Assembly (NCBI GenBank): GCA_017499595.2
Contig: CM039003.1
Span: 434,001-498,000 of the forward strand
DNA length: 64,000 nt
Direction: 5' to 3'
From: Psilocybe cubensis
Taxonomy: Eukaryota
Positions 37,014 through 57,123 of this stretch are shown in pieces (position 1 is the stretch's first letter; each line of letters begins with the position of its first letter). The position numbers were made by a program, and so were the translations under genes. The notes beneath the pieces were generated by a model. It was not told the DNA's origin and made no database searches. It worked only from the letters and a program-made list of their open reading frames with translations.

Positions 37014-37880
37014 TTGGATTTGGAGCAAACCTACAAGGACCTGCACTACTTAGGAAATCTTCTCAAGTAGTTGTCCCGCCAGTGCTTATCTCCCCGTATC
37101 CACAGATTACAGCCAACCCTCTTCCTCCTGCGGAAAAACGCGCATAGATACACGTCGACAACCACCCCTCCAACAACGCTTTATGCTCCGCCTTGCTGGT
37201 GTACATTTCGAGGGCATGAGGCATGAGTGTGTTGGTCAAGGTAGAGACGGCACTGCAGGGTCATCGGACGATGCGGTTGTGTTCTCGGCTCACTGTGACT
37301 CAGTTTCAACTGCCACGGGACGATGGACAATAGCAGGAGTCGTCACGGTCCTATAGCTATTTGAAAACTTTGCGAAGCACCGTGCCAAAAGGACTGCCAT
37401 TGTTCAACTTCAACAATGTAGGGAAAGATGGCTTGCGTGGAGTGCATGCGTGTCTGCAGCATCCATTGACATGTCAATGATCAAAAGAGACTGATACGTT
37501 TCCTGGAAGCTAAGTTTCTCGGAGAGAAATTGCACTTTTAAGCAACTAATTCTCTTGCAGCCGTCCAATTCTCTTCCGGGAAACATCTATGACTCTAGAT
37601 AGCACCTAAACTCATCCCCCACCCACATGCCAACGTGCTCTCCTCAGACGCATTTGAGCAAGGTATAGACGGCCTCGATTTGTCATTCTACAAAGGTAGG
37701 AGCAGGTACCATAACAAATATGATTCGGTACAGGACATGATGGGCGTTATCAAGAGTTTGTGGAGTATGCTGGAGGTTGCTAGAGGTTGTGCAGTTGGCT
37801 TGCTGAATGTGATCTTCGACGATAAGCGTAATCCAGAGTCTGCGAATATTGATGACGGCCCCGTTTATTTCGACAGTAAG
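37014..37880 (+). pseudogene. Decayed M28 vacuolar membrane protease (PFF1-like) fragment
   Basis: Collinear remnants LDLEQTYKDLH, YFEG, VLVKVE, FSAH(C)DSVSTA, FNFNN..(K)DGL.G, GLDLSFYKGRSRYH.KYD, SLWSMLEVARG, PVYFD with frameshifts and stops. Confidence 0.8.
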
Positions 37881-38085
37881 TATCGTGTTTTCTTTGTCGC
37901 TTCGGTCACTCAAAACAGCACTCTCACCGTACATCGCACTCTCAATCCTGTCCATCGAGAACTACATCGAACCCATAGGTTCCTCTGATACCATGTATCG
38001 AATCTCCCGATCAGCCGGCATTGGCTTGTCAGCCCCCACCCCGCAAGAGAGCGTGACAAGGGCCTATCGACTGGGTAGTAAAGCA

Positions 38086-38155
38086 GGTATAATGTACCTT
38101 ACATCCCAATGAAACTTATACCCTGCATTCCCGCAAATAAAGTACCCTACATTCC
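38086..38155 (+). repeat. Left terminal inverted repeat
   Basis: Reverse complement of 53097-53166; 51/70 identical by manual ungapped alignment. Confidence 0.9.
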
Positions 38156-38308
38156 GATGTCTATAATGGGTTATTGGAAGGAAAAATTGTTCTCGGAAGC
38201 GCCATTATCTGGGTTAACGGAAATTTTTTCCACTGGCATCATATCAATTGAGGCATGAGCATCATTCTCACTCATGTGTTGGAGAGCTTTCTGTTAATGT
38301 GCTCATAG

Positions 38309-38790
38309 AAATTGTGGTGTACGCCTCGATTTTCAGTAGAGTGTAAAGGTTTGCGGTTGGATTCACTTTAGGATGCCGAACGAAACTTTGGCCCAAGCAT
38401 CATTTTCATGAACGCGTCAAAGTCTGCGCTAACGATCACTTTGCACGGGTGACACAAATTGTGGCCTGGAGCTTCATTTTGTCCTAACATGTCAATCTCT
38501 CGGTCAAATTTGATTTATTATGCAGATAGAAACTTTGGTGTGAGCATATCAAAATTTGGCCAGAGCATTATTTTCATTCATATGTCAAAGTCTGCGATAA
38601 CACCCATTTTGCAACAAGCGTCACAGAGATTGCAGCTGGAGCATCATTTTTTCTAGTAACACCTCAAATCTTTCGGTGCAACCCCTTTACTATCCACCCT
38701 AAATATTGGTCTGAGCACCATTCATCCTTCAAATACTCAATTTCGCTCTCAGAATCACTTTCAAACATCTTGGTCTAAGCGTCCGTCATA
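38309..38790. repeat. Degenerate ~37-bp periodic subterminal array (left)
   Basis: AAA(T/C)TTGG...CATTTT units recurring at ~37 bp, with a ~168-bp block duplication (38383 vs 38551: GCAT.ATTTTCAT...GTCAAAGTCTGCG.TAAC). Confidence 0.65.
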
Positions 38791-39030
38791 CAGCGGAGGT
38801 GGTATCCACATTCAACTTTAGGGTTACGCACAGACCTCAAATTGTTGAGGACGTCTTTCACTCATTCGGAATCACACATGGTATTATCCATTAACCACAG
38901 AACCAGCGAGCAGTTAGAATCCTGCAGAATGTACAAATGCATATTTAATACACAGTGATTCAAAATGATTCTTTTGGCACCAATTCTTGAGTTGCCATGA
39001 TTTGATGCACGGGGTGACGGGCCACATACG

Positions 39031-39141
39031 GGCCACCTTTTGATTGCCCCGCAAGAAATGGTGCACAGGCCACCTTTTGATTGCCCCGCAAGAAATGGTG
39101 CACAGGCCACCTTTTGATTGCCCCGCGAGAAATGGCGTACC
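39031..39141. repeat. Three tandem 37-bp repeats
   Basis: GGCCACCTTTTGATTGCCCCGCAAGAAATGGTGCACA at 39031, 39068 and 39105 (third copy slightly diverged). Confidence 0.95.
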
Positions 39142-39357
39142 GGCCATATATTAACCATGTTCCAGAACTGAATCCTCTGCGTCAATTTTTATACTAGCAT
39201 AAATATAATGCATGTTGACCAAAATTCGGCAGCCACACATATTTGTTCTCTCCCCGGATATCCTGTCAAAAATACTCTAAACCATGCATTTGACACATCT
39301 GCGGTTTCTGTGGTTGGAGACAAACAATGTTGATTTAAATTTTTAACTACAGGCTAA

Positions 39358-42300
39358 CTAATGACCTTGCTTTTTTTCTAACTTTTGAATCTGCTGCCTG
39401 TTCCAAATCGAAAAGAAAACCCTCATGTACATCACTGCTCTGTCCTGTGACATATAGCTCACAGCCTTTCGAATCTTGGAAATCCCACTGTTTCCACATT
39501 CTGCAGCACTAGAATTTAGTCTGAGCAGATTTGGATTTTCTGCACAGTAAGATGAAAGAAAACAGGCTTCACCACATTTATGTTCACTTGAGTGAAATAT
39601 GTCGATGGCGAAGAGTGTGTCCTTGAAGAAGTCTGGTTCCCGTAACATGCAATAAGGCTGTAAAGCACAAGCAAAATCGTATACCACGACTTTTGGAGCC
39701 TTTTTCCAGCGTGTGAATATTGCCGAGAACACATCGTTTCTTCCCTCCGCCGCTCGGATACAGTGAAATCCATAGCAAATGCTATGGGTGCACCAAACAC
39801 ACATAATCCCGCCGGTTAGTCGCTTTTTTGAATAGGTGGAGTAGTATTTTCGGCATATGTCTTCGTCAATTTCTGCGCTTCCCAAGTCATATCCTGACTC
39901 GTATGGCAAATTTGGATATTGTGGACGGTCACGAATGGCCGGCATGGCGTAGCAACATCCTGTCTATTTAAAATCTCGTTTGAAATTTCATTTAACATTA
40001 TATGACAACTCACCTTGAGCCAATCATCCATAAATAAATTCTCTTGTAAAACATTGCTTACAACAGCAGGTCCATCGTGAACCTTTAATAGTGTGTAGAC
40101 CACAGTAACCCGGACGTATAGCCATTTACAGACCCCTAGAACCTGATTTGTGAGCGTCCCCATGGTAAGTTCATGCTTAATTAACAGATGGAGAGCCGGG
40201 ATATATCGCAGCAAATGAACATTGCTGAGATAAGGACGTCTGATGAATGTTCGAAGGTTGTCCAGGCAGGAAAATGCTATAAATTGCAGCACATTTTCAT
40301 CCGAAGACAGCTATAATTAAAGTTGTTATAATGAGTCGTTTAATATATGGAATACCGAAATACCTGGATGAAAAATTTGGAATACACATCATGCGCATTC
40401 CTTTTACCCAAAACAGTAGCCATCCCAAAGTGGATATCGAAGAGTTCTCCAACGGAAGGGTCCAGGGCCATCAATTTCCGGACTAGCTCGGGAATTTGAG
40501 TCAAGCGCTCAACCATTCGGCGGTTTCGTTCATACTTGGGGCTTCCCTCCGGATGAGTGGCGTCAGAAATGGTGGTTAATTGTGGCCCCTGCAGAATATA
40601 ACGAATTAAAAGGCGCAAGGAGCGGTTTGGAATGGCTTGCAGATTGGGTAACGGCCGGACATCTGGTCTAGAGATAGAATTCTCCCCTATTGTAGTCGGG
40701 GGACGTAGAGTTGGCATCAGGTTTTTGCGGCTAAATGACACCGTGACGCCGTCCCATATAGTTGAATCAGGGGTCGGGCCACAGGATGGGCATACCATGT
40801 CGGGTCCAAAGTCTATAAGTCGGGCGTAAGAGAACCAGCTCGATCGAAACAACTTCTCGTTTGCAAACGGAATAGGGGAGTTCCTTGCTTGGTATCGGCG
40901 AGAAACAGTCTGCACCCAGGAAATAAAAGGGGTTTCTGACGACGAAAATGCGCTGGTGTAATCATCAAGGAGCTCATGGGTGAACAAGCTCCGGTTATTG
41001 AAATTAAAAATCCCTTGTGAGCTACAATCTGGCCCAATACATCGATGGGTGCATTTACCGCATTTTTGCAACGTTATAACTGCTTTGAACGCCCGTGTAA
41101 GAGTATAAATGGTACACTCCTTTTCGATTGTAGGTTCAAGAGCTTTGAAACGCTCACGTGGGGTTGTACAACAGCAAGAATCATTCGTCGACAGGGAGAT
41201 AATCGTTGGAGGAATGTCAAATGTCACTCTTGGCATTGATGGAGGATCGGATGCGACTCTTGACCAGCCCGGCGGTGGGAGAGGGCGATATGAAACCGAT
41301 TCAGCAATACCTGCCATTGTACGCAGAGCCGTACCTATGAAGATAGGTTTGTAGTTAAGTACTCGAACCTTTCAATAGATAATCAAGCTTACCATTGTAT
41401 TGTAATCCTGTGTCGCCATCCTTGCCTACATTGTCGTCTTGAGCATCACAGTTGCCTGTCAAATATTGCTGCAATGTATGCCGCGCCGATACAATATGTG
41501 AGCACGAGGATGCCCCACTGTCCTTGTTGCATTTCCAAACTCCCGCTCTGGTGTCGTCTCCCTGATGTTCGACCACGGCACGGTTCTTGATTGTTGAAAA
41601 TCGAGTAAATGATGGTGTTGAGAAGTAATTCATGTACTGTCCATCTTTTATACTCTCGTGCCTTGAAAATAAGAAAGTTGTCTGATCTGTATCTACCAGG
41701 ATAGCATATGAACACGGTATGTTGAATCCATATCAAACAATCTAAGTTCTCACTACCTTTTTCTACCTCAAAAGCCTGGTTTTCCGAACCTACACCAGCA
41801 TTCTGATCAATGAAGCGTGAATGGAAACATGAACTTTGCCCATTGGCAGCCGGGCACAAACAAACAGAAGTGAAGATGCCGTCAATCTCCACTCGGAGTA
41901 CATGGTACCACAGCCGCTATTGATGTATGAGAGGGAAATTTAACTTTGCGAGAATCTGAAATGACTTACGGTTGATTCCCCCCTCAAAATATTCCACCCA
42001 TTTACCACAAATAACCGACTGGTCAGTTGAAACAGGCCGCATTCCTCTGCCAAAACAGCATCCAAGAAAAGCGAATAATTTTCATCAAAATTAGGCAGAA
42101 GTCGTGTATCTATGTCGTCATCTGTAGCTTCAAGCTCCTGATTTGAGGTTTCCAAAACATTGGGCTCGGGAAAATCAGTGAAAGTTGCTGGTGTTGATTG
42201 TTGGCCTGGCGTGTGTTCTGTGTTTTGTGCCTTCCCTTGCCGGTCAGCAACCTTGGTCCGCTTTACTGGACCTGAAACCTTTCTCTTTTTGCGAATTGGA

Positions 42301-42404
42301 GTAGTAATAAGTTCGCAGTCTTGGGGTTTAACAGGTGCATACTGGATTGTGGAGGGAGATTCTGGTGGAAGTGCGTATACAATCGGAGGAGGTGAGTCAT
42401 ACAT
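39358..42404 (-). CDS. KDZ-family transposase with SWIM-like fingers and a CxC4-like cysteine cluster
   Basis: CLC...CFH and C.K......CSH fingers; C..C....GPDC...GIFNFNN..LFTHELL; CP.CG..P...IWDGVT; TGGIMCVWCTHSICYGFH, EGRND, YDFAC, DIFH..HKC, NSSAAE catalytic-core motifs; multi-exon with no obvious lesion. Confidence 0.88.
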
Positions 42405-42454
42405 GTTACTTGGAAGAGACAGTGAGTGCCGGCGGGTATAGCGTGTGCGACCTA

Positions 42455-42640
42455 CAGCACACTTAAATTATGGCTGTGAGCGCAGTTTTGATATCCTTGT
42501 CCAGCACTTACAATGTTGCCTGTGAACCATTTTCATATGGTTATCCAGCCCCTAAGATGTTGCGTGTGAGCTATTTTATATGCTTGGCCAGCGCTTGAAA
42601 GTATGTTTGTGACCTCATTTTCACTTCCTGGTCAGAAAGA
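42455..42640. repeat. Four degenerate ~44-bp tandem repeats between the divergent transposase and first cargo gene
   Basis: TGTGA...TTTT.ATAT.....CCAGC.C.T units spaced 46, 44 and 43 bp. Confidence 0.65.
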
Positions 42641-42803
42641 CGATATCATCCGAAGTTTTTTTAGCAGATCAACAAATCCGGCAGAGTACAAGGTTAGACA
42701 TGGGGCAGAAAATCCTTCCATAAGATCATTTTGGCGTATTATTTAAGGTTGTTCCATTCCGAAATTCTACGGTGTGTTCCCCACTCTCCTTCCTTCTCAT
42801 ACA

Positions 42804-44098
42804 ATGGGTCGCAAAGAGTCTAGTCTCATTACCAAGAGAAAGGTAGTTTCTACTGACTGTCTATAATGTTCATGCTAACAGATATGACAGAAACAATTTT
42901 CCAATGCCGCTGCAGCCTCTAGAACACCACCTCGTGCCTCCAAACGGAAGACAGTATGTTCATCTCCTAGATGCATGCTCTGCCACTGCTCTGAATACAG
43001 TGCTCGCTGGGTATAGACGTCAACACCTATTGAGCCCCAACGTCAGGCCCAGAAGTGCCAGAAGTGTCCTGGGAGGCCTCTTCGAGCCCAATGCGAGCAT
43101 ACCAAGCGCGGAAAGGAGTATCTGGCGCGTCAAGCTGCATTAAATGTGAGTTTTTCTTTAGATACTGTCCTATTATTTGCTTATGGCGTCGCAGGAACTT
43201 GAGGATGATTCGGACAATGAGTCCAGCTCAGACAGTTCCAACAGCAATGTCGGGCCTGGCCCCTCTACCTCACTGGCATTCAACAATGCAGGCCCTTCCA
43301 CTCCTGACATCTTTGCATCCGCGAGCACACCCGCATCACACAGTGTCGTTGCCACTCCCACCCCCGCATCAGCACGTTCTGGCAACATGGGTGTGCTCAC
43401 CTCATCGCATCTTGCCCAACTATCTGCTCGCACGGGAAGTACCACCAGTGCGAGCCTCTCATCAGCGTCCGCCTCATCTTCTCGTCAAGCGCGCCGCACC
43501 AGTGCCAGAGACCCATACAACGGCTTTGTTGAAGGAGCTTACCGTGGATCGGAAATCTATCGTGAGTGGTCTGGTCATTCTTAAAAATCACACTGGTTGT
43601 CTCTGAAATCCGATCTTTGGCTCCAGAAATTGTGCGCGGCCATGCGCTACCTTCACCTATTGCCGACAATACTCGGGCTGTACGGAGGTTTATGAGTACA
43701 ATCAACTCGATTGTCGAGAAGGTTGGGTTTTTTAAACTGCTGTAAAAACATTCTAAACTGATTGTTTTTAGTGCGAGGACTTGTCTAGACAAACTTCGTG
43801 TTGGCTTTTTATCGGTGCCCAGCACTCGACAGCTCGATCTCCCGCCATCAGTTATGCCTCACCACGCCTTCGTCGAGATGCTGCAGAGCAGGTAGGAAAT
43901 ATTGGGACTCAGTTTTCCAGTATCACTCGTAATTTGATTCAGGCCCGCACTTAGGAAAATGCGGACCTCCAACGCCAACTTGATCAATCTCGTCTTGACG
44001 CACAGCAAATGGCGCAATCATTGGAGAAAGCGGCTCAGACTCAGAAAGAGTTAGATAAACAGTTGAAGCGTTATCAGCGTATCCACGGCCTTCTTTAA
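42804..44098 (+). CDS. Cargo gene: CxxC-x7-CxH zinc finger, Ser/Thr linker, divergent MADS/SRF-like domain, coiled coil
   Basis: Spliced product MGRKESS...KCQKCPGRPLRAQCEH...RRFMSTINSIVEK|CEDLSRQTSCWLFIGAQHSTARSPAISYASP...; GT-AG introns; stop at 44096-44098. Confidence 0.65.
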
Positions 44099-44135
44099 CA
44101 TAGCCAGTCGTACACTATTTCATAGCCATATACCA

Positions 44136-44926
44136 TTAATCAGAATCAATCAGCGAATCATCCCTGTTTTCATCATCGGTCTCATCCTCGTCCTCGTCCC
44201 CCTCCTCCTCGGGATCAGGCCCGTCATCGAGATTGTTGTGCAGTCTACGGAGAAAATATTCGATCATATAGCAACTGGAGTCGGGGACGTCGGCACATTT
44301 GAAGATCATGTAATGGTCAAAATCCTCCGGCTCAATCGGTGCAAATGCATCGAATTCTTTCCAATCAAACCTCTTGGCTCCCAGTCTGACAGCCCGAAGA
44401 AGTGGAACCTCGGACGCCCGGGTCAAATGACAGAGATGAGAATCATCTCCATATACAAAGTGGCCATTTTTTGCTCGGATGTACCACATAAATGGTAGGC
44501 GAGGTGTAAGCTGAACAGTTCATTAATGGATATTGATAGGAACGGACAGAGCATTCATTACTTACTGATGAGAATACGTGGATATTGATGGTTGAACGTT
44601 GAACGCATTCGTCCCTTCGACAGTCAGGATTAGCGCAGAGTTCCATGCGAAAGGCTGTGATTCAAATTTCTTGGGTAGCTGGGGAGTAATATGCTGCACT
44701 GTCGTTCCTTGGGCTCCCCCAGATGTCCCTTTTTATGTTGTTTGGAATATCCTGTGTCAATGATTGCTCGGTACCTTCTTGTCCTAGCCACCAGGTCCCA
44801 CATGGCCATCCCAGTGCAGTCACAATCATGCATGATGAGTCGGCACATTCATCTATTTGCAATTTGCACTCATATGACACAAGCTGGGCACTCACACTAA
44901 GGCAATAAGCCCACAAAACCTCATGG
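44136..44926 (-). CDS. Cargo gene, hypothetical Cys/His-containing protein with acidic tail (5' exons unresolved)
   Basis: Convincing last exon WYIRAKNGHF...DDGPDPEEEGDEDEDETDD; upstream pieces such as CANPDC could not be joined confidently. Confidence 0.45.
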
Positions 44927-45546
44927 CGGGGCGCTTAACAAATACATAGACTTGACCCTACCAGCGCACTGGGTTTGGAATTAGTCTCAAAGCTATGAAG
45001 TATACTATAACCACAGATATCACCTTTGGAACTGACATCAATAAAAGGTGGTCCCACAATGACTATAAGGAGCTTTCTATGATGTCAAAGCGTGTGTCGG
45101 CGGCCATGCTGCGGAAAAACTCTAATTGCAATGCACCCAAAGACATGTTGCATTCCTGCGGGCATATGGGCCAAACACCCGAATTCATAAGCGAGAAGAA
45201 GCCAGTTAATCAGCCTTAATGAGCAGCTTGGCAAGCTGAAACTCAGCTTCAAGGTGGCCTGGTATTCCCTCTACTCTGACTGAAAGGCTATCTCAAGCTA
45301 GTAGACGTTTGTACGGTACAATCTTAGTGGTGTGCATTGATACACCTGAGTGCTATTTTTTGACAAAGTTAACCAATTGTGCCACAATCCCGGGAACAAT
45401 CACTGGCATTGTCGGAAATAGCCTGGCCTTGGTACGGGTCTAGAAGGGTCCAGCCCATCACGCGGTGTTCAAGCCGTCAGGTTATGTCAGACATGGTCTG
45501 TGCGTCACGTTCCAATATAGGCGGCAAATACGTGTCCACCAGGGCC

Positions 45547-45720
45547 GGTCGTATACATGATGAATGTGACCACCAACTTGTGCTTCAGGTAAGTACATCA
45601 TTCGATAGTCACAAACCGGGTCGCATACTAAGAATTTGTCCTGTTTGATAGTCACAAACCAGGTCGTATACTAAGAACTTGTTCTGTGAGGTCGCATACA
45701 TGCTGTAAGGTCGCATACCT
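45547..45720. repeat. 43-bp tandem duplication and five GGTCG(C/T)ATAC motifs
   Basis: GATAGTCACAAACC.GGTCG.ATACTAAGAA at 45604 and 45647; motif at 45547, 45619, 45662, 45690 and 45709. Confidence 0.8.
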
Positions 45721-45990
45721 GCTACCAGTTTGTACAGTATTTTTGTTGTCTGTGCCAATGTAATACATATGAAATGTACCAATTCCTTTTTATGTTTACC
45801 TATATCATAAAATGAGAATTATCCAGGGATATAGCCCGTGCAAAGCGACAAGGCCACGGCTTGAAATCAAACTGGCGTCAATTTGCTGTATTGCAAGCGA
45901 GCGCCTAATTAGAATAATTCGCAACCTGGCCATAAATCACACCCTGCCACTTGACCTCACCCTTACTTACACAATCTTCCTGCTTCTCTC

Positions 45991-46929
45991 ATGGAAGGAT
46001 CAGCCAGCTCCTGCCAAGTTGGTCCGGATGGGTTGACCAAACAGCAGAGATATTTGCAGAAGTAGGTCTCTCAATTGCTTTGGTTCTCTGACCTTTATTG
46101 ATTGCTTTACCCTTAGAAATCGGCAGAAAATCAATGCAAAGAATGCGGTCTGAAATCGTCTTCGCAGGCAGCAAGAGTCAGAGCTTCTAATCAGCCGTAT
46201 AGAACATAAAATCTAACTAAGTGAGCACAGGAAATTACTGAGGCAAGAAGAGGCCGAAATAGCAAACACCCTGGAGGTTGATAGCGAGGACGTTATTATT
46301 TCAGAGTCTAGGGTAGAACAACCTCAACGGGACAGTGCCAGTAAGTCTCAACTATCAAGTTTGGGGCAGCATATATATATATATTGAATAGCTATGTATA
46401 CTGCTACGGCAGTATCTGTGGATCAATCCACACAAACTGAACTTGGTGAGCCGTACTTTATATTCAATCGTGATTTACATCTGGTCCTGACCACTGTGAA
46501 GAAAACCCCGACCAGCCAAGGCCTGAGGGGTATTATACATCCCAGGAATATTATGCATCACAAGAGTTCGACGACTTGATGCATGAAAAGCTGATGAAAT
46601 TGGAGCGTCTGGATCGAGCAAAGAAGGCCGAGGAGGCTTTCGAGAAAGGTATTCAAGAATACGAAGATTTCTCCAAGGCCCTGAAACAACGATGGACCAT
46701 TCACTCAGGGTGGAAATACCCTCGACGATTTAAAGGCAGTAGATTGGAAGAGCGATGCCGACAGCTTCAAGGTTTCCTACAAGAGGCAGACGAGCTGAAT
46801 TGCAATCTTCTGCAAGAGACACCTCCCAGTGAGCCCGAATGGTTTGAAATATTTCTTCAGGTTCGCGAGATTGTAGCAAAACGAGGTCATCTACAAGTAG
46901 TATATCACACACTCATGGATACAGTGTAG
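45991..46929 (+). CDS. Cargo gene, hypothetical helical protein with basic N-terminal helix
   Basis: MEGSASSCQVGPDGLTKQQRYLQK|NRQKINAKNA..., several short exons, then a 117-codon helical last exon. Confidence 0.55.
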
Positions 46930-46973
46930 ACACCAATGTGATTGACTTGATTCAGTATGAAGTAGCGACCAAT

Positions 46974-48110
46974 TTACATGTTCTGGCAGTATCTACAAAG
47001 CTTGAGATACGTCTCAGGTGTATGCGCAATGCGCAAATTGCTGTCACCGGAGACCCTAACCACCTCACCAGCATCCACAAGCTGTAGAAACTTGTTAACG
47101 GCGTCGGTCCTAGTTGGGAGGGCTTTGGTTTGGGAACCACGAATCCCTTGGATGTTGAGATGCACAATGCTGCCTTGGGGGCGACTAAACAATAGGTAAG
47201 GTTCTGTTTGAGATAAAGGTTTGATTTCAACTTACTACGTCAAAGAAAAGATGCCTGGCTCCCGACCAACAATGACTAGGGTCCATGTTCCAACCTCAGG
47301 AGTTGCTATGCCACAAAATCAGTCATTGAAGCGGTGGAGAGCAGCAGATTGCACGTACATGGATCTTCAGGACGAAATCCAGTACAGGTGGATACATCTT
47401 CACGATTTAGCACGGTACGAACCGGGGGAACAACCTCTACCACCTCCCCACGCTCCAACGCCGAATAGAAATGGGCTTTAGCAATCAATTCCGATGGGCA
47501 AAACAGTGCATGACCACCAGAGATTCCGGTGTAATTATCAAGTGCGGCAGCCCTAAGAACAATGTTTTATAAGCATAACTGGATAGACACAATGAGTATG
47601 TACGTACCGTCCTTGAACTGGGCCAGGGCGGCGACCAACTACCACACTGTACCAGCGTTCCACCTCGGGGGGGAGAAAGTGTCCGGGACGTAAGCATGTT
47701 GTTCCAGCAACATGACAGGTGCAATCTACAACACCGTCAGTATATAGATCTTTTGAAGCATGTAGTGAGCTTACCTGAGTTCAAGACAGAAAGTTGTTTT
47801 TCCATCGCAGCGAGCGAGAAACATGTACACCCTGGATCAGAACAGATGAATAAGTCAGTTAATTTGCCAGCTATCATGCCTCCCACGTACTGTTTTTCGC
47901 AAGCTGAGACATAAGTCAAGGGTTGGGGAATTCAAGAAAGCGAAGTTGTAAGGGAAAGAGTGCTCCTGGCTGACGCCGCCAACGATGTATCCTTTAAGTT
48001 CCTGTGGTTCAGCAATGATGACCCATTCGGTCGTCCAAACGGGGATAATTTGTGGATCTTCTGATGGGAACCAAAGCGGGCACAGATGTCCATACGCCTT
48101 GAGGTCCGAT
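46974..48110 (-). CDS. Cargo gene with two tandem RNase H1 N-terminal (Cauli_VI)-like domains
   Basis: Spliced: ERWYSVVVGRRPGPVQGR|AAALDNYTGISGG...AKAHFYSALERGEV and TWTLVIVGREPGIF...NIQGIRGS...AVNKFLQLVDAGEV; start codon not resolved. Confidence 0.65.
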
Positions 48111-51100
48111 GAAGGTTCGCAAAATGCATGGCATCCGATGCATCGCTCAACATTGTCTTGGAGTCGAGACCATCCGAAGTAGTCCAGCGATAGAAGGTAA
48201 GAATTTCACATTCCGAATTGCTTCAGAAACTTTGCGAACTTCCGCTAGCATCAATCTTTACGTCGCGCAGCCAGAATTTTCTTTACGTCGTGCAGCCAGA
48301 ATTTATGGAGGGGGACCTTGGTGTGTTTTTGAATTGTTTCGCTGTACGGATTGGCCTACTTAACTGTTATTTTTAGCTATCGCAGCTGCCAATATTAGGC
48401 TGGAGACAGCGACTGCCGCCTGGCATCGCATTCACAAGAAACGCAGGGAGAATCGCCCTGCAAATTGGGAGGACATTCATAAGGAGTTCAAGGACGCCAA
48501 AGAATCATTGACCGCTCTTCTCAAAGGTAGGTCCCACTATGTATAATTCACCAATGAATCAACTAACCTTGTTGTCTATATCAAGATCGCAAAAGTAAAG
48601 AGATCAATCAAGAGACTCTCGACAGCGTTTCAAATCTGGAAACAACCGCAGGCTTCATGGTATGCTAGTTTTTGTATGAAAAAGTGTTCCTTATTGCCTC
48701 ATTTATTGCCCTTAGTCAACCAGCTCAGCGACCAGTTATTTAGCTGCTATAGTTGCATCCACTATCTCCAAGGTTCCTCTTGCGCCTGTGGAACAAACTA
48801 CGGGAGCCCCAGCTACTATTTTACAACCTAAGACATGGGATCGTACAATTGTAAGTCATTATTGTACTTGTGGATATGCTACTAATGCGACAAATTTTCT
48901 CATTCAGATCGATGAAAATCAAGTCGAGGAAACTATGCCAGCGGAGAAAGAGCCAGTGACCGGCCCTCCCAGAAAGGTCGGTAATCGCTATGTTAATATG
49001 CATTAGGCCACTCACTAACTGCTGATTTGCTTTAGGATGACGAACCTTGTGCGCCTACCAACAGTGTGGTGTACAAAGGCCCAGTGACGGAATCTGCTAT
49101 CAAGGTCAGTCATTACGGTGTTATATTTTCCATGGACAATGAATGAACTAAATATTTTACTCACCAATCACGTAGTCCACCGTTGATGATGCCAACATCG
49201 ATCCGGTTTTGAAAGCGCTCTCGCTACCGTCCCAGTCAGCCGACACGTCTATTCGCCATGAGATGACTATCGAGATATCTGGATTCCCGGCTGGAGTTGT
49301 TAATGCAGCAACGCCACCTCACCAGGATCTCATATCCGGCGACGCACGTCCAATTCAAATTGATTCCGGGAGGCGAGAAGCGTTGGGTTCAAATGGAGAA
49401 GCACCAATTTTGAATGTGAGTTTTACAGGACTGTATTGTGACGAACATGGACTCATTTGGAATCCAGATTGTGGGTGGGTCAACCATGTTCCCCATTCCT
49501 CCAAACCTTCAGAAGGAGTTAGACCAGTGCACCGCAGAGAGTTCAGGTCTCTTACAGAAGATTCACACACTAGAAGAAGAACTGTGTGCGCCAGCACAGC
49601 GCACAATGGACGAGATACGTTTGAAGCTGAGAGAGATTGACTCGGGCTATGCTGCTATTTACGCTGTTGAGAAAAGAGTCAGCGAAATACAAAACATTAT
49701 TGCTGAAGGAGAACGATCCTTTACTGCCAATGAACGACGCAAACATCTCCTCAAGAGGAAAGAGATCCTCGACAAGCAGCGAGATGAGGGCGAGGCGGAG
49801 TTCTCGAGGCTGACAGTGGCAGATCTTCCTGAGTATCAGCGGAAGAGAAATCTTCTCATGGCAGAGATCGATGCCGTCAAGCTAGAGCTTCAGCAACTGG
49901 CATCCTCCAAGTCCAAGAAAGCTTCAAAGGGAACAACCATTCGGTCAAAGTTTGCCAAGGCTTCTAGACAGGCTAGAATTACGAAATCTTCCGGCGGCGA
50001 CAAGGCATTTAGCAGGGCTAACACCACAGAAAACGGGTCTGGGGATGATGATGAATCGTCGTTGTCTGAGGGGTCATTTGAAGGTGATGGGGAGGGTAGC
50101 AAGTCCTCAAAGCGCAAATCGAGCACCAAATTCGATCCCACTATTGGCAGGAAGAGGACCAAGGCTCAGCGTCTCATGCTAGAGGTTGTTTACAGCGATG
50201 AGCTGAAGGAGGAGGAGGAGGCAAATGCGACGGGCCTTCGAGAGTTTAGGGTCGATGAGTGGGATTGTGAGGAAGATATGAAGGAGGAGGCCAATTGGGC
50301 AGCTATGACACCAATTCAGCGGGTTGAATATTGTGGTAAGCTGCCTCTCTTGTTGATTAGATTTTTCTTTGACTGATTTACTGCATTGTAGATGATATTG
50401 TGCGCTCTATTGCCCGCTTTCAGAAGACAGGAAACTTGCAGGATTTCCGTCCAAAATATCGTCGATCACTTCGTCATGTCCAATCTCTACTTCCTGAGAA
50501 GTGCTTCGAATCAAGACGCGTGGCTATCGCCATTCACATGACCTCGCATGGTAATCTCATCTGCCGTTTCCATAAAAGGTACCCGAAAACCAAATTTTTC
50601 GACAACGGACCAGGCCTTTACAGAGTTCGGGGAGTCCCTAAGAAACCCGTATATCGATACCGAGTCGAGGATGCAGCAACGCCCCTGAGGGAAACAGGTT
50701 ATATGTCATGCGGATGCTTGATTGACGATGTCTTGCTGGAGTTTTACTTTTGGAAGACTCTAACCATTTCATCGCCACTTCCATCGCTACAGGGGTTAGA
50801 GGAACCCATGAAAGGGGATGTCTTTGAGCCGCGGCATCGATCCTTCCTGATCAAAGTATTCAAAGAACAGTCTTTGCTCACAGCGGACGACATCTACGAC
50901 CCTAACCGACCCAGAGACATTCGCAAGTTTGAACGAGAGGTGAGATTGTTGGATTTGAGTATCACCAGGCTTGCGAAGAAGTGGGAAGAGAAGACGGGAA
51001 TTGAAATGAGGATAATTTTTCCGCAGAGAGAAGCAGAGCTGGAAAGGATGAGACGGGAGGCGGCTGAGGCAGCAACAAAGCAAGGTCAGGCTGGAGAGTC

Positions 51101-51119
51101 GAGCGCTATGTCCCAGTAA
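48109..51119 (+). CDS. Cargo gene, large coiled-coil protein with C-terminal Cys/His cluster
   Basis: Long exons 49438-50335 and 50392-51119 (coiled coil, K/S-rich linker, HGNLICRFH...SCGC..DDVLLEFYFWK); upstream short exons with GT-AG introns; start approximate. Confidence 0.65.
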
Positions 51120-51735
51120 TTAGCTTTTATATAGAGTTGAAATTTGTAGTGAGGAAATTTATTGGCATTCGAAGTAAACTTGTACTGTATAGACCAAGTA
51201 GACGACAATAAGATACTGGCTTTTTGCCACATGCAAAATTTTATGTGTTGACGATAATGTGGTACACGCAACATTTATAATCTGTATTGTATATTATGCC
51301 ATATGCAGGAGTTTAGCTGGACACTCAAATATTGTCTCATGCCACATTCTGTGGTTAACCAAGTTATATGGTGTATGCCACATTTTCGAGGTTAGGAAAG
51401 ATTTCTGGCATATGCCTGAGTTTAGCCACACGACCGTTCTCTCTTCATTTCTGTATTTCATCTGAATTTGATGAAGTCCATCGGCAAATGCCAGCCGGTA
51501 ACGCGGCATTTTGTTTCACTATCCGGGACATTCGTACCGCCTCACCACCACGGTTCCAGGCCATTGACAGCCTACCGCGTCGCGCAATATGGAGAATTTG
51601 AGGACTCCTTCGACGAAGGATACGATGCCGACGACGAAATGTAGGAATTAGCTTACCATGCATGGAGGGACACGTGAAATTGTTACCTGTAATAGTTGAA
51701 AAATCCAGTAATTGTTGGACATATTCCGCTACGGG

Positions 51736-52800
51736 ACACATTTCGTGTCTCTCACACAAATTCCGGTGTACGAAGAATTGTGACTCCAACACCAAATCCT
51801 GGCGCACGAAAGATTGTGAGTCCCTCACCAAATTCTCGCGCTCACCACATTTCGCGGCTCTCACACAAATTCCGGTGCACGAAACATTGTGAGTCCTTCA
51901 CACACATTCTGGCGCTCACCACATTTCACAGCTCTCACACTAACTCAGGTGCATCCCTCACACAAATTCTGGTGCTCACCACATTTCGAGTCCCTTGCAC
52001 AAATTCTGGCACTCCGCTCTTTTCGAGTCCCTCATACAAATTCCGCTGCGTGACACATTTCGAGTCCCCTCACACAGACTCTGGAACTCCCCACATTTCA
52101 CGTCCCTCACACAAATCCCGGTGCACGAAACATTGTGAGTCCTTCACACAAATTCTGGCACTCACCACATTTCAATTCCCTCACACAAACTCAGGGGCAT
52201 CCCTCACAGCGTCCCCTCACAAATTCCACTGCACAACACATTTCGTGTCTCTCACACATATTCTGGTGCACGAAACATTGTGAGTCCCTCACCAAATTCT
52301 CGCGCTCACCACATTTCGCGGCTCTCACACAAATTCCGGTGCACGAAACATTGTGAGTCCTTCACACACATTCTGGCGCTCACCACATTTCACAGCTCTC
52401 ACACTAACTCAGGTGCATCCCTCACACAAATTCTGGCGCTCACCACATTTCGAGTCCCTCGCACAAATTCTGGCACTCCGCTCTTTTCGAGTCCCTCATA
52501 CAAATTCCGCTGCGTGACACATTTCGAGTCCCTCATACAGATTCTGGAACTCCCCACATTTCGCGTCCCTCACACAAATCCCGGTGCACGAAACATTGTG
52601 AGTCCTTCACACAAATTCTGGCACTCACCACATTTCGATTCCCTCACACAAACTCAGGGGCATCCCTCACAGCGTCCTCTCACAAATTCCACTGCGCGAC
52701 ACATTTCGTGTCTCTCACACATATTCTGGTGCACGAAACATTGTGAGTCCCTCACCAAATTCTCGAGCTCACCACAGTTCGAGTCCCTGACCTGACTTCG
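51736..52800. repeat. 37-bp minisatellite with ~464-bp higher-order repeat (right subterminal array)
   Basis: Consensus ACATTTCGAGTCCCTCACACAAATTCTGG(C/T)GC(T/A)C...; anchor TTGTGAGTCCCTCACCAAATTCTCG at 51814, 52278 and 52741. Confidence 0.93.
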
Positions 52801-53096
52801 GGTGCACGTAACATCTAGGGTCGTCCTCAGCAATTTCGGCTGTGCCCAGAAATTTTAACCTTCCGAGACCATGGCAGTGTTGTCTTGCTTGATATCAAAC
52901 TATGACAACATTTATTGAGCCCACATGTAATGAGGCCCATTCCATGCCATACAGCAGCCCGGGAGTGGATCAACAAGCTTATCATAGAATGTTTCAGCAG
53001 ATTAAATTGGAAATGCGGTAGGTGCGGACATTTGAGTGATAAATTATGTTTGCCGTGAGCAAGATATTTAGGTCTTGATGACTGTTTTAGGAAGAT

Positions 53097-53166
53097 GGAA
53101 TGTACGGTTCATGGTTAGCAGGCATGTAGGGTCTACATCTATGAGGACTGTAAGGTACATTATACC
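53097..53166 (-). repeat. Right terminal inverted repeat
   Basis: Ends TGTAAGGTACATTATACC, the exact reverse complement of 38086-38103. Confidence 0.9.
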
Positions 53167-54105
53167 GTATTTCTATATGGCCGATTTGCGGTGACAAGAG
53201 GCCACTTTACTTATTCAAACCTTGCTCAATCATAGGACTACGACTCAACACATAATAGACCATTGGGTTATTCTACTGTATGGTCTTTCTATCTCCCCTA
53301 TCGTTAGGACTGAAGCCCTTGTGCAGTTCCCATTGACGATCCGAGTTGCGCACCTGTCGTAGTCCGATAACGTTTGGTTAAGCCACGTCATGTATAGATA
53401 TGAAATCTAACAATGCACCGTACTTTCAGGTGTATTACACTGCAATGAATCTCTTTCAACAAGCCGATTATAGCGAGGTCCTTAACCATTGGTGATGAAA
53501 CTTTTGATCTTTCTTTAGATTTCTTTTTCTCTCCAATTTCTGATTGTTGATCGATTCAAATGTTCTCTGCTGGATAACTCGTGTATCGCATGAGCAGGAA
53601 GACAAGGAAGGAGAGCAAAGATGGATGAGAACTACTCTTTCACGCACCACGGCAAGTTCTGTGTATTTATAGACCCCTTTTCCACATGCATCATAAAAGA
53701 TAACCAACGGTCATTAGATCACCTCTACCAGCATGACCCGGGTTTATCTGTTTTATATCGCCTAAGTTTTACCTTCCCATCCTAAAATCTATATTAATTG
53801 TATGGTTCTCTTGCAGATCAGCACGTCGACATATCTGATAGAGCACAAACAGACCGAAATACTATGCAGATAATTTTAACAGATCTGTTGAGGCTCTTAC
53901 AAAGGAAAGACGAGTTGCATCGCAAAAGAAGGTGCACCGCTGGCCATATGGAGACGTTATGATTAAGAATCGGTTCTACAGGATATCCGAAAGATAGAAC
54001 CCCCTACCAACGCGACCTGCCTTCCTAACAATAGAGTGCTAGGCCTCAATATAAACCCCTTATTACAGATTAACGGTCCCACTGCATCATTTTGTTCAGC
54101 AACGA

Positions 54106-56304
54106 ATGAGGTTCAATACCATATATCTGACAGCCGTCTCATTATGTTGTGGGGGAGCTTTCGCCGGCCAAGTTCCAATTATTGAAGGGGTTCTTGGTGG
54201 TGTTCCCAGCACACCGCCGTTGACCTTCAAACACGCTTCTACATCGGCAACCACTCCAGGGAAGCTTCGATTGGTTGAAAACTCTGGAATATGTGGTCAG
54301 TAGCCGTCTCAGTTGCTTTATCACTCTATAAACTTTCCTCCCTCCAGAAACTACACCTGGCGTTTTCCAAGCTTCCGGGTATGGTGACTTAACGTCAACA
54401 GAAAGCATCTGGTAGGCTTGATTAACTAATTTTGGTTTTCGTTCACTCGACTGAGATTTTCTTGCACAACATAGGTTCTGGTTCTTTGCAGCTCGCAAAA
54501 ATCCGGATACAGCGCCTCTTGCGCTGTGGTTCAATGGCGGTGTCCGTCTCGCTATTGTCTTTAATGTGCACGAATCTGACTCGGTAATAGCCCGGGAGCT
54601 CCAGCATGATTGGACTTTTCCAAGAACATGGTCCTTGTCGAATTACTAATGACAGCACATCGGTTACTCTCAACCCGTTTTCATGGAATAACAAAGCCAA
54701 TGTGCTATACATTGATCAACCCGTTGGAGTAGGGTTCTCTCATGGAGATCTTAAAGTTGGGACATCACAGCAGGCTGCTTCCGATATCTGGACCTTTATG
54801 CAGATGTTCCTCTCAGACTCCAGGTTTTCAAAGTACCAGGCCAATAACCTGGCTATCTGGACGGAATCGTTCGTGTCCACCCAAATTTATCCCAAATGCT
54901 TTGAACTGATTACATCGATCAACTTGAATTAGATACGGCGGTCACTATGGTCCTACATTTGCTTCGTAAGAGGCTAAATTCTCTAATGTAATATTTTATA
55001 CCGCTGATTAACCATGAGTGCAGATTCTTTCTTTCTCAGAATGCGGCCATTGACGCCGGCACTGTTTCTGGCTTGAAGTTGAATCTCAAAGTTCTGGGAG
55101 TCGGAGATGGACTTACGGTGAGTACCGAAATCGACGAATTGTTACACAAGTTTTACCTCAGGATTGACTGCTTGTACATAGGATCCGTTGACACAGTACC
55201 CCGGCTATATCTCATACGCCGCAAGTAATCCTTATCACGCGTTAGTCTCTACTTCAGCCATCTCCAAGGCAAATACTTCCTGGTCATCCTCGACTGGATG
55301 CAAATCCCAGGTAAGATATTGATTAAGTTGATAGTGTTCAGGCTGATTTTTTATCATTGTCTTCTAGATCACGTCCTGTAACAATGGCGGATCCAACTCC
55401 GTCTGTTCGAAAGCTCAAAGTTTCTGCAATAACAACATCTTGTCACCTCTAGCGGGAAATTTTGATGTACGAATATGTTCTAACTTTCTTGTTGACTGTG
55501 CTGATATTAGATGCTTGCAAGGTATACTACGTTCCAACAAGGAACCCTGACCCATACCCTCCCGATCTTACTAATTATCTCGCTTCTATCGCAAGCAAGA
55601 TCGGCGCAGAGGCAACTTGGGAGGAAACAAATGAGAATGTGTATTCCAATTTTGCGGCAACCGGCAAGTTTACAAAGCAATATCCTACGTCTACGTTTCT
55701 TACTTTCATCTAAAGGCGATTGGATGAGAAATTCTCGCCCTGACTTGGAGACTGTCATTAACGCCGGGGTAAGCCCCTATCACCTTCAGGTTCTCGAGTA
55801 ATAACCAGCTCTTATTTCAATGACAGGTACGAACCATCGTTTATGATGGTGATGCGGTGAGTTTGATAGTCGAAGCATCAAACCCCTAATAACGAAGATG
55901 CTTCATAACGTTCAGGACTATATTCTGAATTTCAACGGAGTGGAAGCAATGGTAACATGGACTTATTTTTTAGACTTCTCTGAGCTTACATTTGACTCTT
56001 CCAAACTCAGGTCAACGCGCTCGACACCCAATTTACGACTTTATTCAAGCAGCAGCAATTCCAGACGTACACAGTTGCTGGACAGACAGCTGGGCAATTC
56101 AAGAATGCTGGTCTTTTCTCTTATGTTCGCATTTTTGGCGCTGGCCACGAGGTACCTGCGTACAAGGTGAGTGTCCTACCTATGATGAGATTCATACTCT
56201 TTTGATAATCGTTCTTCATAAAGTTTGGAACGCTAGCTTATGGACAGGCAGCCGCTCAAATGTTCACCCAAATAATGGCTAACCAATCACTTTCATCGAC
56301 ATAA
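54106..56304 (+). CDS. Secreted serine carboxypeptidase, peptidase S10 (copy 2)
   Basis: Signal peptide, [56 protein letters not shown]; stop TAA 56302-56304. Confidence 0.93.
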
Positions 56305-57027: not shown

Positions 57028-57123
57028 AAGCGCATATATTCACCCTTTTGGCGCATACACCCACCCTCTCTGTTTTTTTCTCTTTCCTTTTTTTAATTCG
57101 CTTCTCGCTTATCGTTTGCACTC

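Follow-up and report, generated by a model that had tools for sequence, protein, structure and literature searches.

A 15.1-kb multi-gene KDZ-type transposon of Psilocybe cubensis and its candidate accessory cofactor

To our knowledge, few KDZ elements have had their ends mapped in organisms other than fish, rusts, Laccaria, Agaricus, and Cryptococcus, and a literature search pairing Psilocybe with KDZ found no report. The Zisupton and Dileera clades both make 8-bp TSDs and Zisupton has TIRs, whereas Kyakuja elements have a 7-bp TSD, 5'-CA..TG-3' termini, and no TIRs, and CACTA/EnSpm and Plavaka elements have a 2-3-bp TSD with CAC.../CATCA or TGT termini (PMC12730594). The same text describes TET/JBP dioxygenases carried by KDZ and other fungal transposons, which are thought to counter methylation-based silencing (PMC12730594). 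For Cryptococcus neoformans, a preprint describes KDZ1, KDZ2, and KDZ3 (Dileera clade), which are 9-11 kb long with TIRs of 139-241 bp and 8-bp TSDs; the KDZx1 element of Cryptococcus deneoformans has KDZ, CxC4, and SWIM domains, makes an 8-bp TSD, and is 6.4 kb long, with two gene models, no TIRs detected, and an extra ORF, CNA07680 (bioRxiv 10.1101/2024.08.15.608186).

The element described here lies within a 64,000-nucleotide stretch of P. cubensis DNA (the window). In raw DNA reads of run X12, an empty-site joint, 38052->53191, was present in 11 reads with 9 starts, and the same joint was found in one RNA-like contig of X14. It skips 15,138 bp, and 8 letters fit either side. Loose read ends were found in 64 reads at 38061 and in 40 and 29 reads at 53190/53191. 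Therefore, the transposon spans 38061-53190 (15,130 bp), and an 8-bp duplication, GTGACAAG, flanks it at 38053-38060 and 53191-53198. The termini read GGCC...GCG. The inverted arms (38086-38155 and 53097-53166) each span 70 nt; their complementarity is 73% overall and perfect over the opening 18 nt. In the window, this 18-mer has only 2 sites at ≤3 mismatches versus 0.04 expected, a count reached in 1 of 100 shuffles. The inverted repeats reported in the first-pass annotation are real, but the ends drawn at their outer edges were wrong: the empty-site joint places the true ends 25 and 24 bp farther out. These outermost 25/24 nt are only weakly alike. Such a poor match at the extreme ends is unusual for a TIR element.

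Table 1. Coordinates of the transposon and its features in the window.
Feature	Position	Strand	Basis
Left TSD copy, GTGACAAG	38053..38060	.	repeat of the 8-mer at 53191-53198; empty-site joint
Whole transposon, 15,130 bp	38061..53190	.	empty-site joint, loose read ends, read depth
Outer left terminus	38061..38085	.	weak match to right terminus
Left TIR core	38086..38155	+	first 18 nt perfect; two GTACCNTACAT copies (38094, 38142)
Spliced RNA-like contig (X15), no long open frame	38436..38734	+	intron 38540-38590, GT..AG
Left subterminal array, 37-bp units, 3.1 copies	39031..39146	.	TRF
Transposase gene, 922 aa, 6 exons	39358..42404	-	open frame; CxC4; DDE-like core by fold
Transposase exons	42404-41970, 41916-41757, 41692-41369, 41310-40364, 40310-40014, 39963-39358	-	
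Tandem repeat, 44 bp x 2.6	42487..42600	.	TRF
Interval expected for second model, JR316_0006700	42500..44130	.	locus-tag order
151-aa gene model, two exons, acidic tail (JR316_0006701/8751/12770 type)	44139..44646	-	
Tandem repeats, 43 bp x 2 and 19 bp x 2.1	45604..45723 (45604-45687, 45684-45723)	.	TRF
225-aa gene model (JR316_0006702 type)	45991..46926	+	paralogue in sister element
Interval expected for fifth model, JR316_0006703	47000..48120	.	locus-tag order
Accessory gene as annotated, 814 aa, 9 exons	48124..51116	+	public gene model
Tandem repeat, 25 bp x 2	48255..48304	.	TRF
Conserved C-terminal domain of accessory protein	50391..51116	+	~200 aa, alignment of relatives
Right subterminal array, ~1 kb, 37/74-bp units, single orientation	51738..52788	.	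TRF
Right TIR core	53097..53166	-	inverted match to left arm
Outer right terminus	53167..53190	.	ends and joint
Right TSD copy, 8 bp	53191..53198	.	match to left copy; empty-site joint

In the annotated P. cubensis reference, the element occurs three times, each time on a different contig and with an identical series of six consecutive gene models (locus tags JR316_0008749-8754, 0006699-6704, and 0012772-12767), and the proteins of the three copies differ by 1-3 residues. The read depth was 95-123 in the element interior versus ~37 in the flanks (about 2.6-3.3x). On the basis of read depth and locus tags, there are about three copies per haploid genome. The empty allele is present in other strains, and the insertion is polymorphic; together with the 1-3-residue differences between copies, this polymorphism makes the element a candidate active transposon. 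An internal-deletion form (joint 39111->45122/45131) was seen in 16 reads. Between-copy differences in X12 were C>T or G>A at 284 of 389 places, and the CpG observed/expected ratio was 0.79 within the element versus 0.93-0.96 in the flanks, indicating that the element meets CpG-directed mutation or silencing pressure. We read the element as an autonomous, young cut-and-paste DNA transposon that is probably still active.

The transposase had been called apparently intact, and the reconstructed gene bears this out: five GT..AG introns of 50-64 nt interrupt a 922-aa frame without a stop, and the product is identical to the annotated protein JR316_0006699. Pfam CxC4 (PF18717), which Pfam defines as KDZ-transposase-associated, matched at approximately residues 340-468 (E 2e-44; 151 bits versus a cut-off of 26.9) and is carried by all 33 listed transposase homologues. 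Upstream of CxC4, the nearly invariant residues C164-x-C166...C175-x-H177 form an N-terminal CxCx8CxH motif, a putative SWIM signature. The Pfam SWIM family did not match the transposase at E≤1, and 2 of the 33 homologues bear the UniRef name 'SWIM-type domain-containing'. Likewise, Pfam KDZ (PF18758) did not match an identical-family protein (P0001) even at E≤1; among the 33 homologues, it was found at E≤0.01 in 11 (best 25.4 bits, under the 26.6 cut-off), with all matches falling on the part equivalent to exon 39358-39963.

The AF2 model of the transposase (pLDDT 75) predicts a DDE-like core that extends from D493, which is invariant across the 33 sequences, to approximately residue 920 and is interrupted by a helical insert. 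When the model was compared with 48,161 chains by VIA-align, residues ~482-920 aligned best to the ISCth4 transposase (Z 10.4, 239 residues aligned) and Tn5 scored Z 8.0, values not far above the stated background of Z 7-8. The next rows included integrases, Mu, TnsB, IstA, piggyBac, Hermes, and Mos1 (Z 5.2-7.7), and most of the next 20 rows were integrases or transposases (Z 6-7.7). A Foldseek search of the PDB with the model yielded no match at E≤1e-3, and a PDB sequence profile search with the transposase found nothing. These results lend moderate support to a transposase core that folds like those of DDE transposases and integrases. On the N-terminal beta-rich repeats, the best Foldseek match was Pur-alpha (E 0.05), which we regard as a lead only.

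From its CxC4 transposase, TIRs, and 8-bp TSD, the element very likely belongs to the KDZ superfamily and is Zisupton-like by features. The 8-bp TSD does not separate Zisupton from Dileera because Dileera also makes 8-bp TSDs. With its 8-bp TSD, GGCC...GCG termini, and TIRs, the element does not fit the Kyakuja clade, and its TSD length and termini do not fit CACTA/EnSpm and Plavaka either. The element resembles KDZx1 in its 8-bp TSD, in CxC4 with an upstream CxCx8CxH motif, and in having one or more additional ORFs to which no function is assigned; unlike KDZx1, it is 15.1 kb rather than 6.4 kb long, has clear TIRs and six gene models rather than two, and encodes a transposase on which Pfam KDZ and SWIM fall short of significance. 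Shared with KDZ1-KDZ3 are a large size, TIRs, an 8-bp TSD, a CxC domain at the N terminus of the transposase, additional ORFs in which no domain is recognised, few copies per genome, and insertion polymorphism. However, KDZ1-KDZ3 carry CxC1 and a clear Pfam KDZ match where the Psilocybe element carries CxC4, and their mobility is experimental, whereas that of the Psilocybe element is inferred from the empty allele and near-identical copies. Like the TET/JBP-carrying Kyakuja, Zisupton, and Plavaka elements of Agaricomycetes, the element is multi-gene and has a second gene that travels with the transposase (PMC12730594). The first-pass reading, in which a KDZ-type DNA transposon carries several genes and an intact transposase between definable ends, is upheld. 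The description as an undescribed system was too strong, since the Cryptococcus literature already contains large KDZ elements that have TIRs, 8-bp TSDs, and additional ORFs of unknown function (bioRxiv 10.1101/2024.08.15.608186).

In a Pfam scan of 142 stop-to-stop ORFs of ≥50 aa, CxC4 was the sole significant match. None of the 142 ORFs matched Tet_JBP at E≤0.01, in agreement with the earlier view that no dioxygenase is present and unlike the TET/JBP-carrying elements; divergent PE-type TET-like proteins are detectable only by HHpred or structure and are excluded by fold for the accessory domain only. No hAT or MULE family was found among these ORFs. The predicted cargo of a zinc finger plus MADS-like protein and a double Cauli_VI protein was found neither by Pfam nor by motif scan, with simple patterns for Cauli_VI, C2H2, and CCHC giving no match.

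The public annotation lists six consecutive locus tags per copy, and four models were mapped to the window, namely, the transposase (-), 151-aa (-), 225-aa (+), and 814-aa (+) models. The six tags fit the initial estimate of about five spliced genes, but the orientation is not strictly alternating, as had been stated, because the mapped genes run two minus and then two plus. ORFs in the interval 42500-44130, such as a Ser-rich one at 43162-43581 (+), had no Pfam match. The 151-aa model has no Pfam family and, in the length range searched, no relative beyond the element's own copies; this search was insensitive because it relied on a mixed profile and a single band of lengths. A paralogue of the 225-aa gene, JR316_0007404, lies inside the 7398-7406 stretch of a sister element and is 76% identical. 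Language-model look-alikes of the 225-aa gene occur in three basidiomycete clusters at 0.93-0.94 and are a lead only.

Tandem arrays were detected by TRF at six places within the element, where five separate arrays had been counted. In most X12 reads, the left array carries 3 extra units ('goes back 111' joint, 159 reads). The word GGTGCAC occurs in both subterminal arrays, with 10 of its 11 window copies inside the element, and was given little weight because it is carried along on tandem units. In two RNA-like contig sets, the sole piece within the element was a 248-nt spliced contig (38436-38734), which carries no weight on expression; no such contig lay over the element's gene models.

One 'intron' of the 814-aa accessory model, at 49416-49428, is an implausible 13 nt in length; either the model is wrong or the gene is frameshifted in all copies. 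The region common to the accessory paralogues begins near 49447, and the first 270 aa are absent from one paralogue (P0037). In the conserved domain, C64, H67, G87, C113, G114, C115, L121, and K128 are invariant (numbering of ORF 50373-51116), and C64, H67, C113, G114, and C115 (C-x2-H...CGC) are invariant in 52 sequences. Its relatives comprise 296 cluster representatives (50% level) at E≤1e-3 and 131 at E≤1e-10. The AF2 model of the domain is confident (pLDDT 93, pTM 0.85) and mostly helical. No Pfam family was found for the domain, and Foldseek gave no match in the PDB (best E 1.8). VIA-align wide gave a best Z of 2.9, with no dioxygenase or known DNA-binding fold recognised; PDB sequence profiles gave a best E of 0.079, and the ESM Atlas gave a best score of 0.75, with no fold or family assigned. 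The modelled fold may be new, which the lack of a structural match does not prove.

Transposase and accessory genes were paired on the same contig as tags 8749/8754, 6699/6704, 12772/12767, 10221/10217, 6810/6807, and 7406/7398. Hence, at 6 of 6 pairable P. cubensis loci in three diverged families, the transposase and accessory genes are 3-8 locus tags apart, and the linkage persists where transposase identity has fallen to 58-61% and accessory identity to 50-53%. Recurrence of the cargo order, a check proposed in the first pass, is borne out: the three copies share one gene order, and two diverged sister families repeat the pairing of transposase and accessory gene. The accessory gene has been kept beside the transposase through divergence and therefore shows the pattern of a core gene. 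Beyond P. cubensis, the sole scaffold length shared by homologues of both genes was that of an 812,708-bp Galerina scaffold; among the 20 accessory matches checked, none from Crepidotus, Pholiota, or Tricholoma shared a scaffold length with a transposase homologue. A metagenome scan for accessory loci returned one 2.2-kb contig, too short for neighbours. At least the 814-aa gene looks like an accessory gene of the lineage itself and not swappable cargo, and the same probably applies to the 225-aa gene.

Overall, a KDZ transposon is the likely best explanation of the locus, with a cofactor role of the accessory protein as its more tentative part. The accessory and other non-transposase genes could instead be passengers whose targets are the host or its silencing, for example as the regulatory or anti-silencing module proposed in the first pass, and take no part in transposition. 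TET/JBP cargo of this kind is known in KDZ and other fungal transposons (PMC12730594), the CpG-directed pressure seen in the mutation bias (284/389 differences) and the low internal CpG (0.79 vs 0.93-0.96) could be answered by an anti-silencing gene, and the accessory domain resembled no known DNA-binding fold. We nevertheless consider passenger cargo unlikely, given that the 142 ORFs hold no Tet_JBP or other enzyme family, that the accessory model is mostly helical without a dioxygenase match (best Z 2.9), and that retention with the transposase down to 58-61% and 50-53% identity is a core-gene pattern; the near absence of the element from the RNA-like contigs also speaks against it, with little weight. 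It is likewise rather doubtful that most of the cargo is non-coding and that the models beyond the transposase and the accessory domain are gene-finder artefacts or decaying remnants. The 151-aa model without relatives outside its own copies, the 2 of 6 models that were not mapped, the 13-nt intron of the 814-aa model and the first 270 aa missing in the paralogue, the lack of Pfam matches, and a sole RNA-like contig (38436-38734) without a long frame would all fit such decay. However, the 225-aa paralogue is 76% identical while the sister transposase is 61% identical, suggesting constraint; its look-alikes in three basidiomycete clusters (0.93-0.94) point the same way as a lead only, and the insensitive mixed-profile, one-length-band search weakens the argument from missing relatives.

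TSDs of 8 bp also occur in hAT elements and of 8-11 bp in MULEs, whose transposases contain SWIM-type motifs. With the sub-threshold Pfam KDZ match, this background might indicate another superfamily with 8-bp TSDs (hAT, Mutator-like) or a composite of two elements in which the CxC4 protein is not the mover. This is highly improbable: no hAT or MULE match was found in the 142 ORFs, nothing between the ends except the CxC4 protein resembles a transposase, the three copies have both ends and the full gene set in common, the internal-deletion derivative retains both ends, and CxC4 is KDZ-associated per Pfam.

For a KDZ transposon with its own cofactor, the transposase would bind the repeated GTACCNTACAT-type motifs in the TIRs. 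Both ends would be cut by a D-D-E centre, for which D493, the D of VYDFAC (~816), and the E of AAECGN (~876) are candidate residues, and insertion would occur with an 8-bp stagger. The accessory protein would be the element's own cofactor rather than captured cargo and is predicted to contain a coiled-coil region followed by the ~200-aa, probably zinc-binding, domain. By analogy, we tentatively suggest that its binding partners would be the subterminal 37-bp arrays, the transposase, or both, and that this binding would serve to assemble or regulate the transposition complex. En/Spm encodes TnpA and TnpD and has long subterminal repeat arrays bound by the second protein; PIF/Harbinger encodes a Myb-like protein besides its transposase, and this protein assembles or regulates the transposition complex, as TnpA does for En/Spm. 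The likeness, a second element-encoded protein plus subterminal arrays, is a working analogy only: no sequence or fold relation to these systems was found, and the TSD length and termini differ. More speculatively, and with considerable doubt, the ~200-aa C-x2-H...H-C-G-C protein could define a new class of zinc-binding cofactors encoded by transposons. Its fold would be absent from solved structures, and it would recognise the subterminal arrays and be obligatory for transposition of the whole CxC4/Zisupton-like lineage across Agaricales. If this is true, CxC4/Zisupton-like elements would be two-component transposons, as are En/Spm and PIF/Harbinger.

These results provide the exact ends, TSD, empty allele, and gene list of a young KDZ family in P. 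cubensis, and as a candidate active transposon, it may serve as a strain marker or tagging tool in this species. The accessory family is of wider interest: it has hundreds of diverged agaric members that Pfam does not cover, its confident model matches no solved structure, and it is steadily linked to the transposase. Its function would tell whether KDZ/Zisupton elements are two-component systems.

The ends of the KDZ-type (Kyakuja-Dileera-Zisupton) DNA transposon, together with its depth and variants, were determined from public reads aligned to window positions 36000-55500. In X12, the raw DNA reads of another strain, 11 reads with 9 starts crossed an empty-site joint, 38052->53191, at which 8 letters match either side. 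The same joint was found in one RNA-like contig of set X14, which covers 37909-38052 and then runs from 53191 onward. GTGACAAG at 38053-38060 is repeated at 53191-53198, forming an 8-bp target site duplication (TSD), and X12 reads belonging to other copies broke off at 38061 (64 reads, mixed flanks) and 53190/53191 (40 and 29 reads). Because the empty-site joint, the duplicated 8-mer, and the read break-offs agree, the element spans 38061-53190 (15,130 bp) with an 8-bp TSD, and an allele without it is present in other strains. The first-pass annotation had set the ends at 38086 and 53166, where the terminal inverted repeats (TIRs) begin. The inverted arms that it described were recovered (38086-38155 and 53097-53166; 70 nt each, 73% complementary, with a perfectly matched leading 18 nt, GGTATAATGTACCTTACA), but they start 25 and 24 nt internal to the true termini, and these outermost stretches resemble each other weakly. 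With up to 3 mismatches allowed, the two arms are the sole sites of the 18-mer in the 64-kb window (0.04 matches expected by chance; two reached in 1 of 100 shuffles). Tandem arrays were located by TRF at six places.

Features of the element, in window positions, with the matching locus tags of its three annotated copies
Feature	Position	Strand	Basis	Locus tags
Left array, 37-bp unit, near left end	39031-39146		TRF	
Transposase, six exons	42404-41970, 41916-41757, 41692-41369, 41310-40364, 40310-40014, 39963-39358	-		JR316_0008749, JR316_0006699, JR316_0012772
151-aa protein	44139-44646	-	homology mapping	JR316_0008751, JR316_0006701, JR316_0012770
225-aa protein	45991-46926	+	homology mapping	JR316_0008752, JR316_0006702, JR316_0012769
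814-aa protein (accessory)	48124-51116	+	homology mapping	JR316_0008754, JR316_0006704, JR316_0012767
Right array, 37/74-bp units, ~1 kb, near right end	51738-52788		TRF	
Smaller arrays	42487-42600; 45604-45687; 45684-45723; 48255-48304		TRF	

Among all 142 stop-to-stop ORFs of at least 50 aa in 38000-53250, the sole significant Pfam family was CxC4 ("cysteine cluster associated with KDZ transposases"), matched at E 2e-44 by a 343-aa ORF (40343-41371, minus strand). The 33 longer relatives listed for this transposase (621-994 aa) were all from Agaricales, and the closest, a Psilocybe cubensis hypothetical protein with 98% identity, guided the derivation of the exon structure. The frame is open over 922 aa with five GT..AG introns of 50-64 nt, in keeping with the earlier description of the transposase as apparently intact, and the product is identical to the reference locus JR316_0006699. 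The Pfam KDZ model did not match the window transposase even at E<=1; at E<=0.01 it matched 11 of the 33, each time in the C-terminal part and under the curated cut-off (best 25.4 bits vs 26.6). For the AlphaFold model of the transposase (33-sequence alignment, mean pLDDT 75), Foldseek returned no match at E<=1e-3. In a VIA-align comparison with 48,161 chains, the ISCth4 transposase ranked first (Z 10.4, 239 residues aligned), followed by the Tn5 transposase (Z 8.0) and by retroviral and Ty3 integrases, IstA, Mu, TnsB, piggyBac, Hermes, and Mos1 (Z 5.2-7.7). All of these transposase/integrase fold matches fall on residues ~482-920; the RNase-H-like core begins at the invariant D493 (IWDG) and is split by a helical insert at ~534-700. 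N-terminal of the core, a C164-x-C166...C175-x-H177 pattern, which we take to be a SWIM signature, is nearly invariant. Residues ~124-280 (window ~41990-41400, minus strand) form two beta-beta-beta-beta-alpha repeats in the model, for which the best Foldseek match was Pur-alpha repeats I-II (E 0.05, non-significant). This region, which overlaps the SWIM-type motif, may serve to bind nucleic acid.

The runner-up Pfam matches among the 142 ORFs (E 0.0036-0.0099) were mutually unrelated. No Tet_JBP family was found in these ORFs, in agreement with the absence of a dioxygenase in the first-pass annotation. The zinc finger, MADS-like, and double Cauli_VI cargo that it had proposed was not supported: the Cauli_VI, SRF/MADS, and zinc-finger families were all missing from the Pfam scan, and simple Cauli_VI, C2H2, and CCHC patterns had no match. 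Homology searches instead identified three annotated P. cubensis proteins collinear with the window (814, 225, and 151 aa), none of them with a Pfam family. A 13-nt "intron" at 49416-49428 inside the 814-aa model is not credible as a real intron, and the paralogue P0037 (527 aa) is alignable to this gene only from ~49483 on; for these reasons, the conserved accessory protein probably begins near 49447, and the exons upstream are doubtful. In the left subterminal region, a spliced RNA-like contig was observed (38436-38539 / 38591-38734, 51-nt GT..AG intron); every frame of this contig is interrupted by stops, so the element end may give rise to a non-coding transcript. The annotation of Cryptococcus KDZ1, as outlined in the preprint text, also includes non-coding RNAs (bioRxiv 10.1101/2024.08.15.608186).

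Cluster look-ups revealed three copies on three contigs (3,335,923, 3,624,129, and 2,299,398 bp), each with six consecutive locus tags in identical order; four of the six models per copy were matched to proteins, and two tags of the x750/x753 type lie between them. From one copy to another, the proteins are 1-3 residues apart, and the copies are thus very young. The X12 depth was ~37 in the flanks, ~95 over 39.2-45.1 kb, and ~123 over 45.1-52.9 kb, a ratio to the flanks (2.6-3.3x) with which the three tagged copies are consistent. X12 also contains an internal-deletion form (joint 39111->45122/45131, 16 reads) that lacks the transposase and its two neighbour genes and keeps both ends and the 225-aa and accessory genes; one version of this joint carries 8 filler letters. 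X12 also has a lengthened form of the left array ("goes back 111" joint, 159 reads). Read ends come loose on either side of 49201-49203 (29 and 26 reads, agreement 0.96-1.0), indicating that one of the copies carries an insertion or rearrangement there; the site falls among the questionable upstream exons of the accessory model.

The pairing of transposase and accessory gene extends to more distant relatives. The transposases of the P0003 homologue cluster (58% identity with the window ORF), JR316_0010221 and JR316_0006810, share their contigs with the accessory homologues JR316_0010217 and JR316_0006807, and transposase JR316_0007406 (61%) is near a 225-aa paralogue (7404, 76%) and an accessory paralogue (7398, 53%). 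At all six P. cubensis loci that could be paired, transposase and accessory gene are 3 to 8 tags apart. The gene set and its order recur in the three P. cubensis copies, and two diverged sister families retain the transposase/accessory pairing. For Galerina marginata, a single transposase homologue and a pair of accessory homologues are each placed on a scaffold of 812,708 bp, an equality of size that gives a weak hint of linkage beyond P. cubensis.

The last exon of the accessory gene (ORF 50373-51116, 248 aa) was searched against 1.84 billion cluster representatives, of which 296 matched at E<=1e-3 and 131 still did so at E<=1e-10. The domain, the conserved C-terminal ~200 aa, occurs in stand-alone proteins of ~200-260 aa or at the C-terminus of 400-1190-aa proteins. 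The 20 matches looked up, frequently located on short contigs, included several each in P. cubensis, Galerina, Gymnopilus, Crepidotus, Pholiota, and Tricholoma. C64, H67, G87, C113, G114, C115, L121, and K128 are invariant in a 52-sequence alignment, and the C-x2-H...C-G-C set suggests a putative zinc site. AlphaFold predicts the domain with high confidence (pLDDT 93, pTM 0.85) as mostly helical, with a fold that is not dioxygenase-like. The domain had no match in Foldseek against the PDB (best E 1.8), VIA-align against 48,161 chains (best Z 2.9), a PDB sequence profile (best E 0.079), or the ESM Atlas (best score 0.75). On a further contig lies P0185 (JR316_0005640), a fourth copy of the accessory gene, now degraded; compared with window 49248-51116, its visible amino-acid changes (R>C, R>H, E>K, D>N, and A>T) are of the type produced by C>T/G>A transitions, in agreement with the transition bias among X12 copies and the element's mild CpG depletion.

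The ends, TSD, empty allele, copy number, intact transposase with a DDE-like core, fixed gene set, and linked accessory family are directly supported, and a mechanism can be proposed beside them. GTACCNTACAT-type words occur twice in each TIR arm; the transposase would recognize these repeated words, cut the element out, and reinsert it elsewhere using a stagger of 8 bp. With its coiled coil and putative zinc domain, the accessory protein would be a second factor encoded by the element, attaching to the transposase and/or to the 37-bp subterminal arrays in the manner of En/Spm TnpA and the PIF/Harbinger Myb-like protein. This role is put forward tentatively, as a candidate somewhat short of probable. 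The main rival is that the accessory gene is host-directed or anti-silencing. Two observations favour a silencing pressure on the element: 284 of 389 variant places among X12 copies are C>T or G>A, and CpG observed/expected is 0.79 inside vs 0.93-0.96 in the flanks.

Since the empty site is crossed by the RNA-like X14 contig, the insertion lies within a stretch that is transcribed in a strain without the element. The element is ~250 bp upstream of the start of a spliced transcript (53442-53662 / 53718-54136), and just to its right is a serine carboxypeptidase gene (Pfam Peptidase_S10, E 6e-29; ORF 54591-54929, plus strand), with spliced exons to 55469 and five GT..AG introns in the RNA-like contig sets X14 and X15. 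Given the transcribed empty site and the nearby transcript, the insertion may alter the expression of neighbouring gene(s). About 4 kb to the right of the element, a 403-aa ORF (57097-58305, plus strand) matching Retrotrans_gag (E 1e-5) and the zf-CCHC zinc knuckle (E 2e-4) is, by these domains, a retrotransposon remnant or copy.

In the published summaries, Zisupton elements have TIRs and 8-bp TSDs, and Kyakuja elements have 7-bp TSDs and CA..TG termini without TIRs (PMC12730594); in Cryptococcus KDZx1, an 8-bp TSD accompanies a combination of KDZ, CxC4, and SWIM domains (bioRxiv 10.1101/2024.08.15.608186). The present element shares TIRs and the 8-bp TSD with the Zisupton type, and its transposase has CxC4, as in KDZx1, and a candidate SWIM-type pattern; its sequence features fit the Zisupton-type picture, and it may instead belong to Dileera. 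According to the same preprint text, large Cryptococcus KDZ elements have TIRs, 8-bp TSDs, few copies per genome, demonstrated mobility, and extra ORFs "without predicted functional domains" (bioRxiv 10.1101/2024.08.15.608186), and TET-carrying KDZ elements have already been described in mushrooms (PMC12730594). No paper in the literature library searched mentions Psilocybe together with KDZ, and related families may be catalogued in supplements to the papers cited here. The accessory domain family, its newness judged against Pfam, the PDB, and limited literature, is the part not accounted for by a known counterpart, and the element that carries it is a new family of the known large-KDZ kind.
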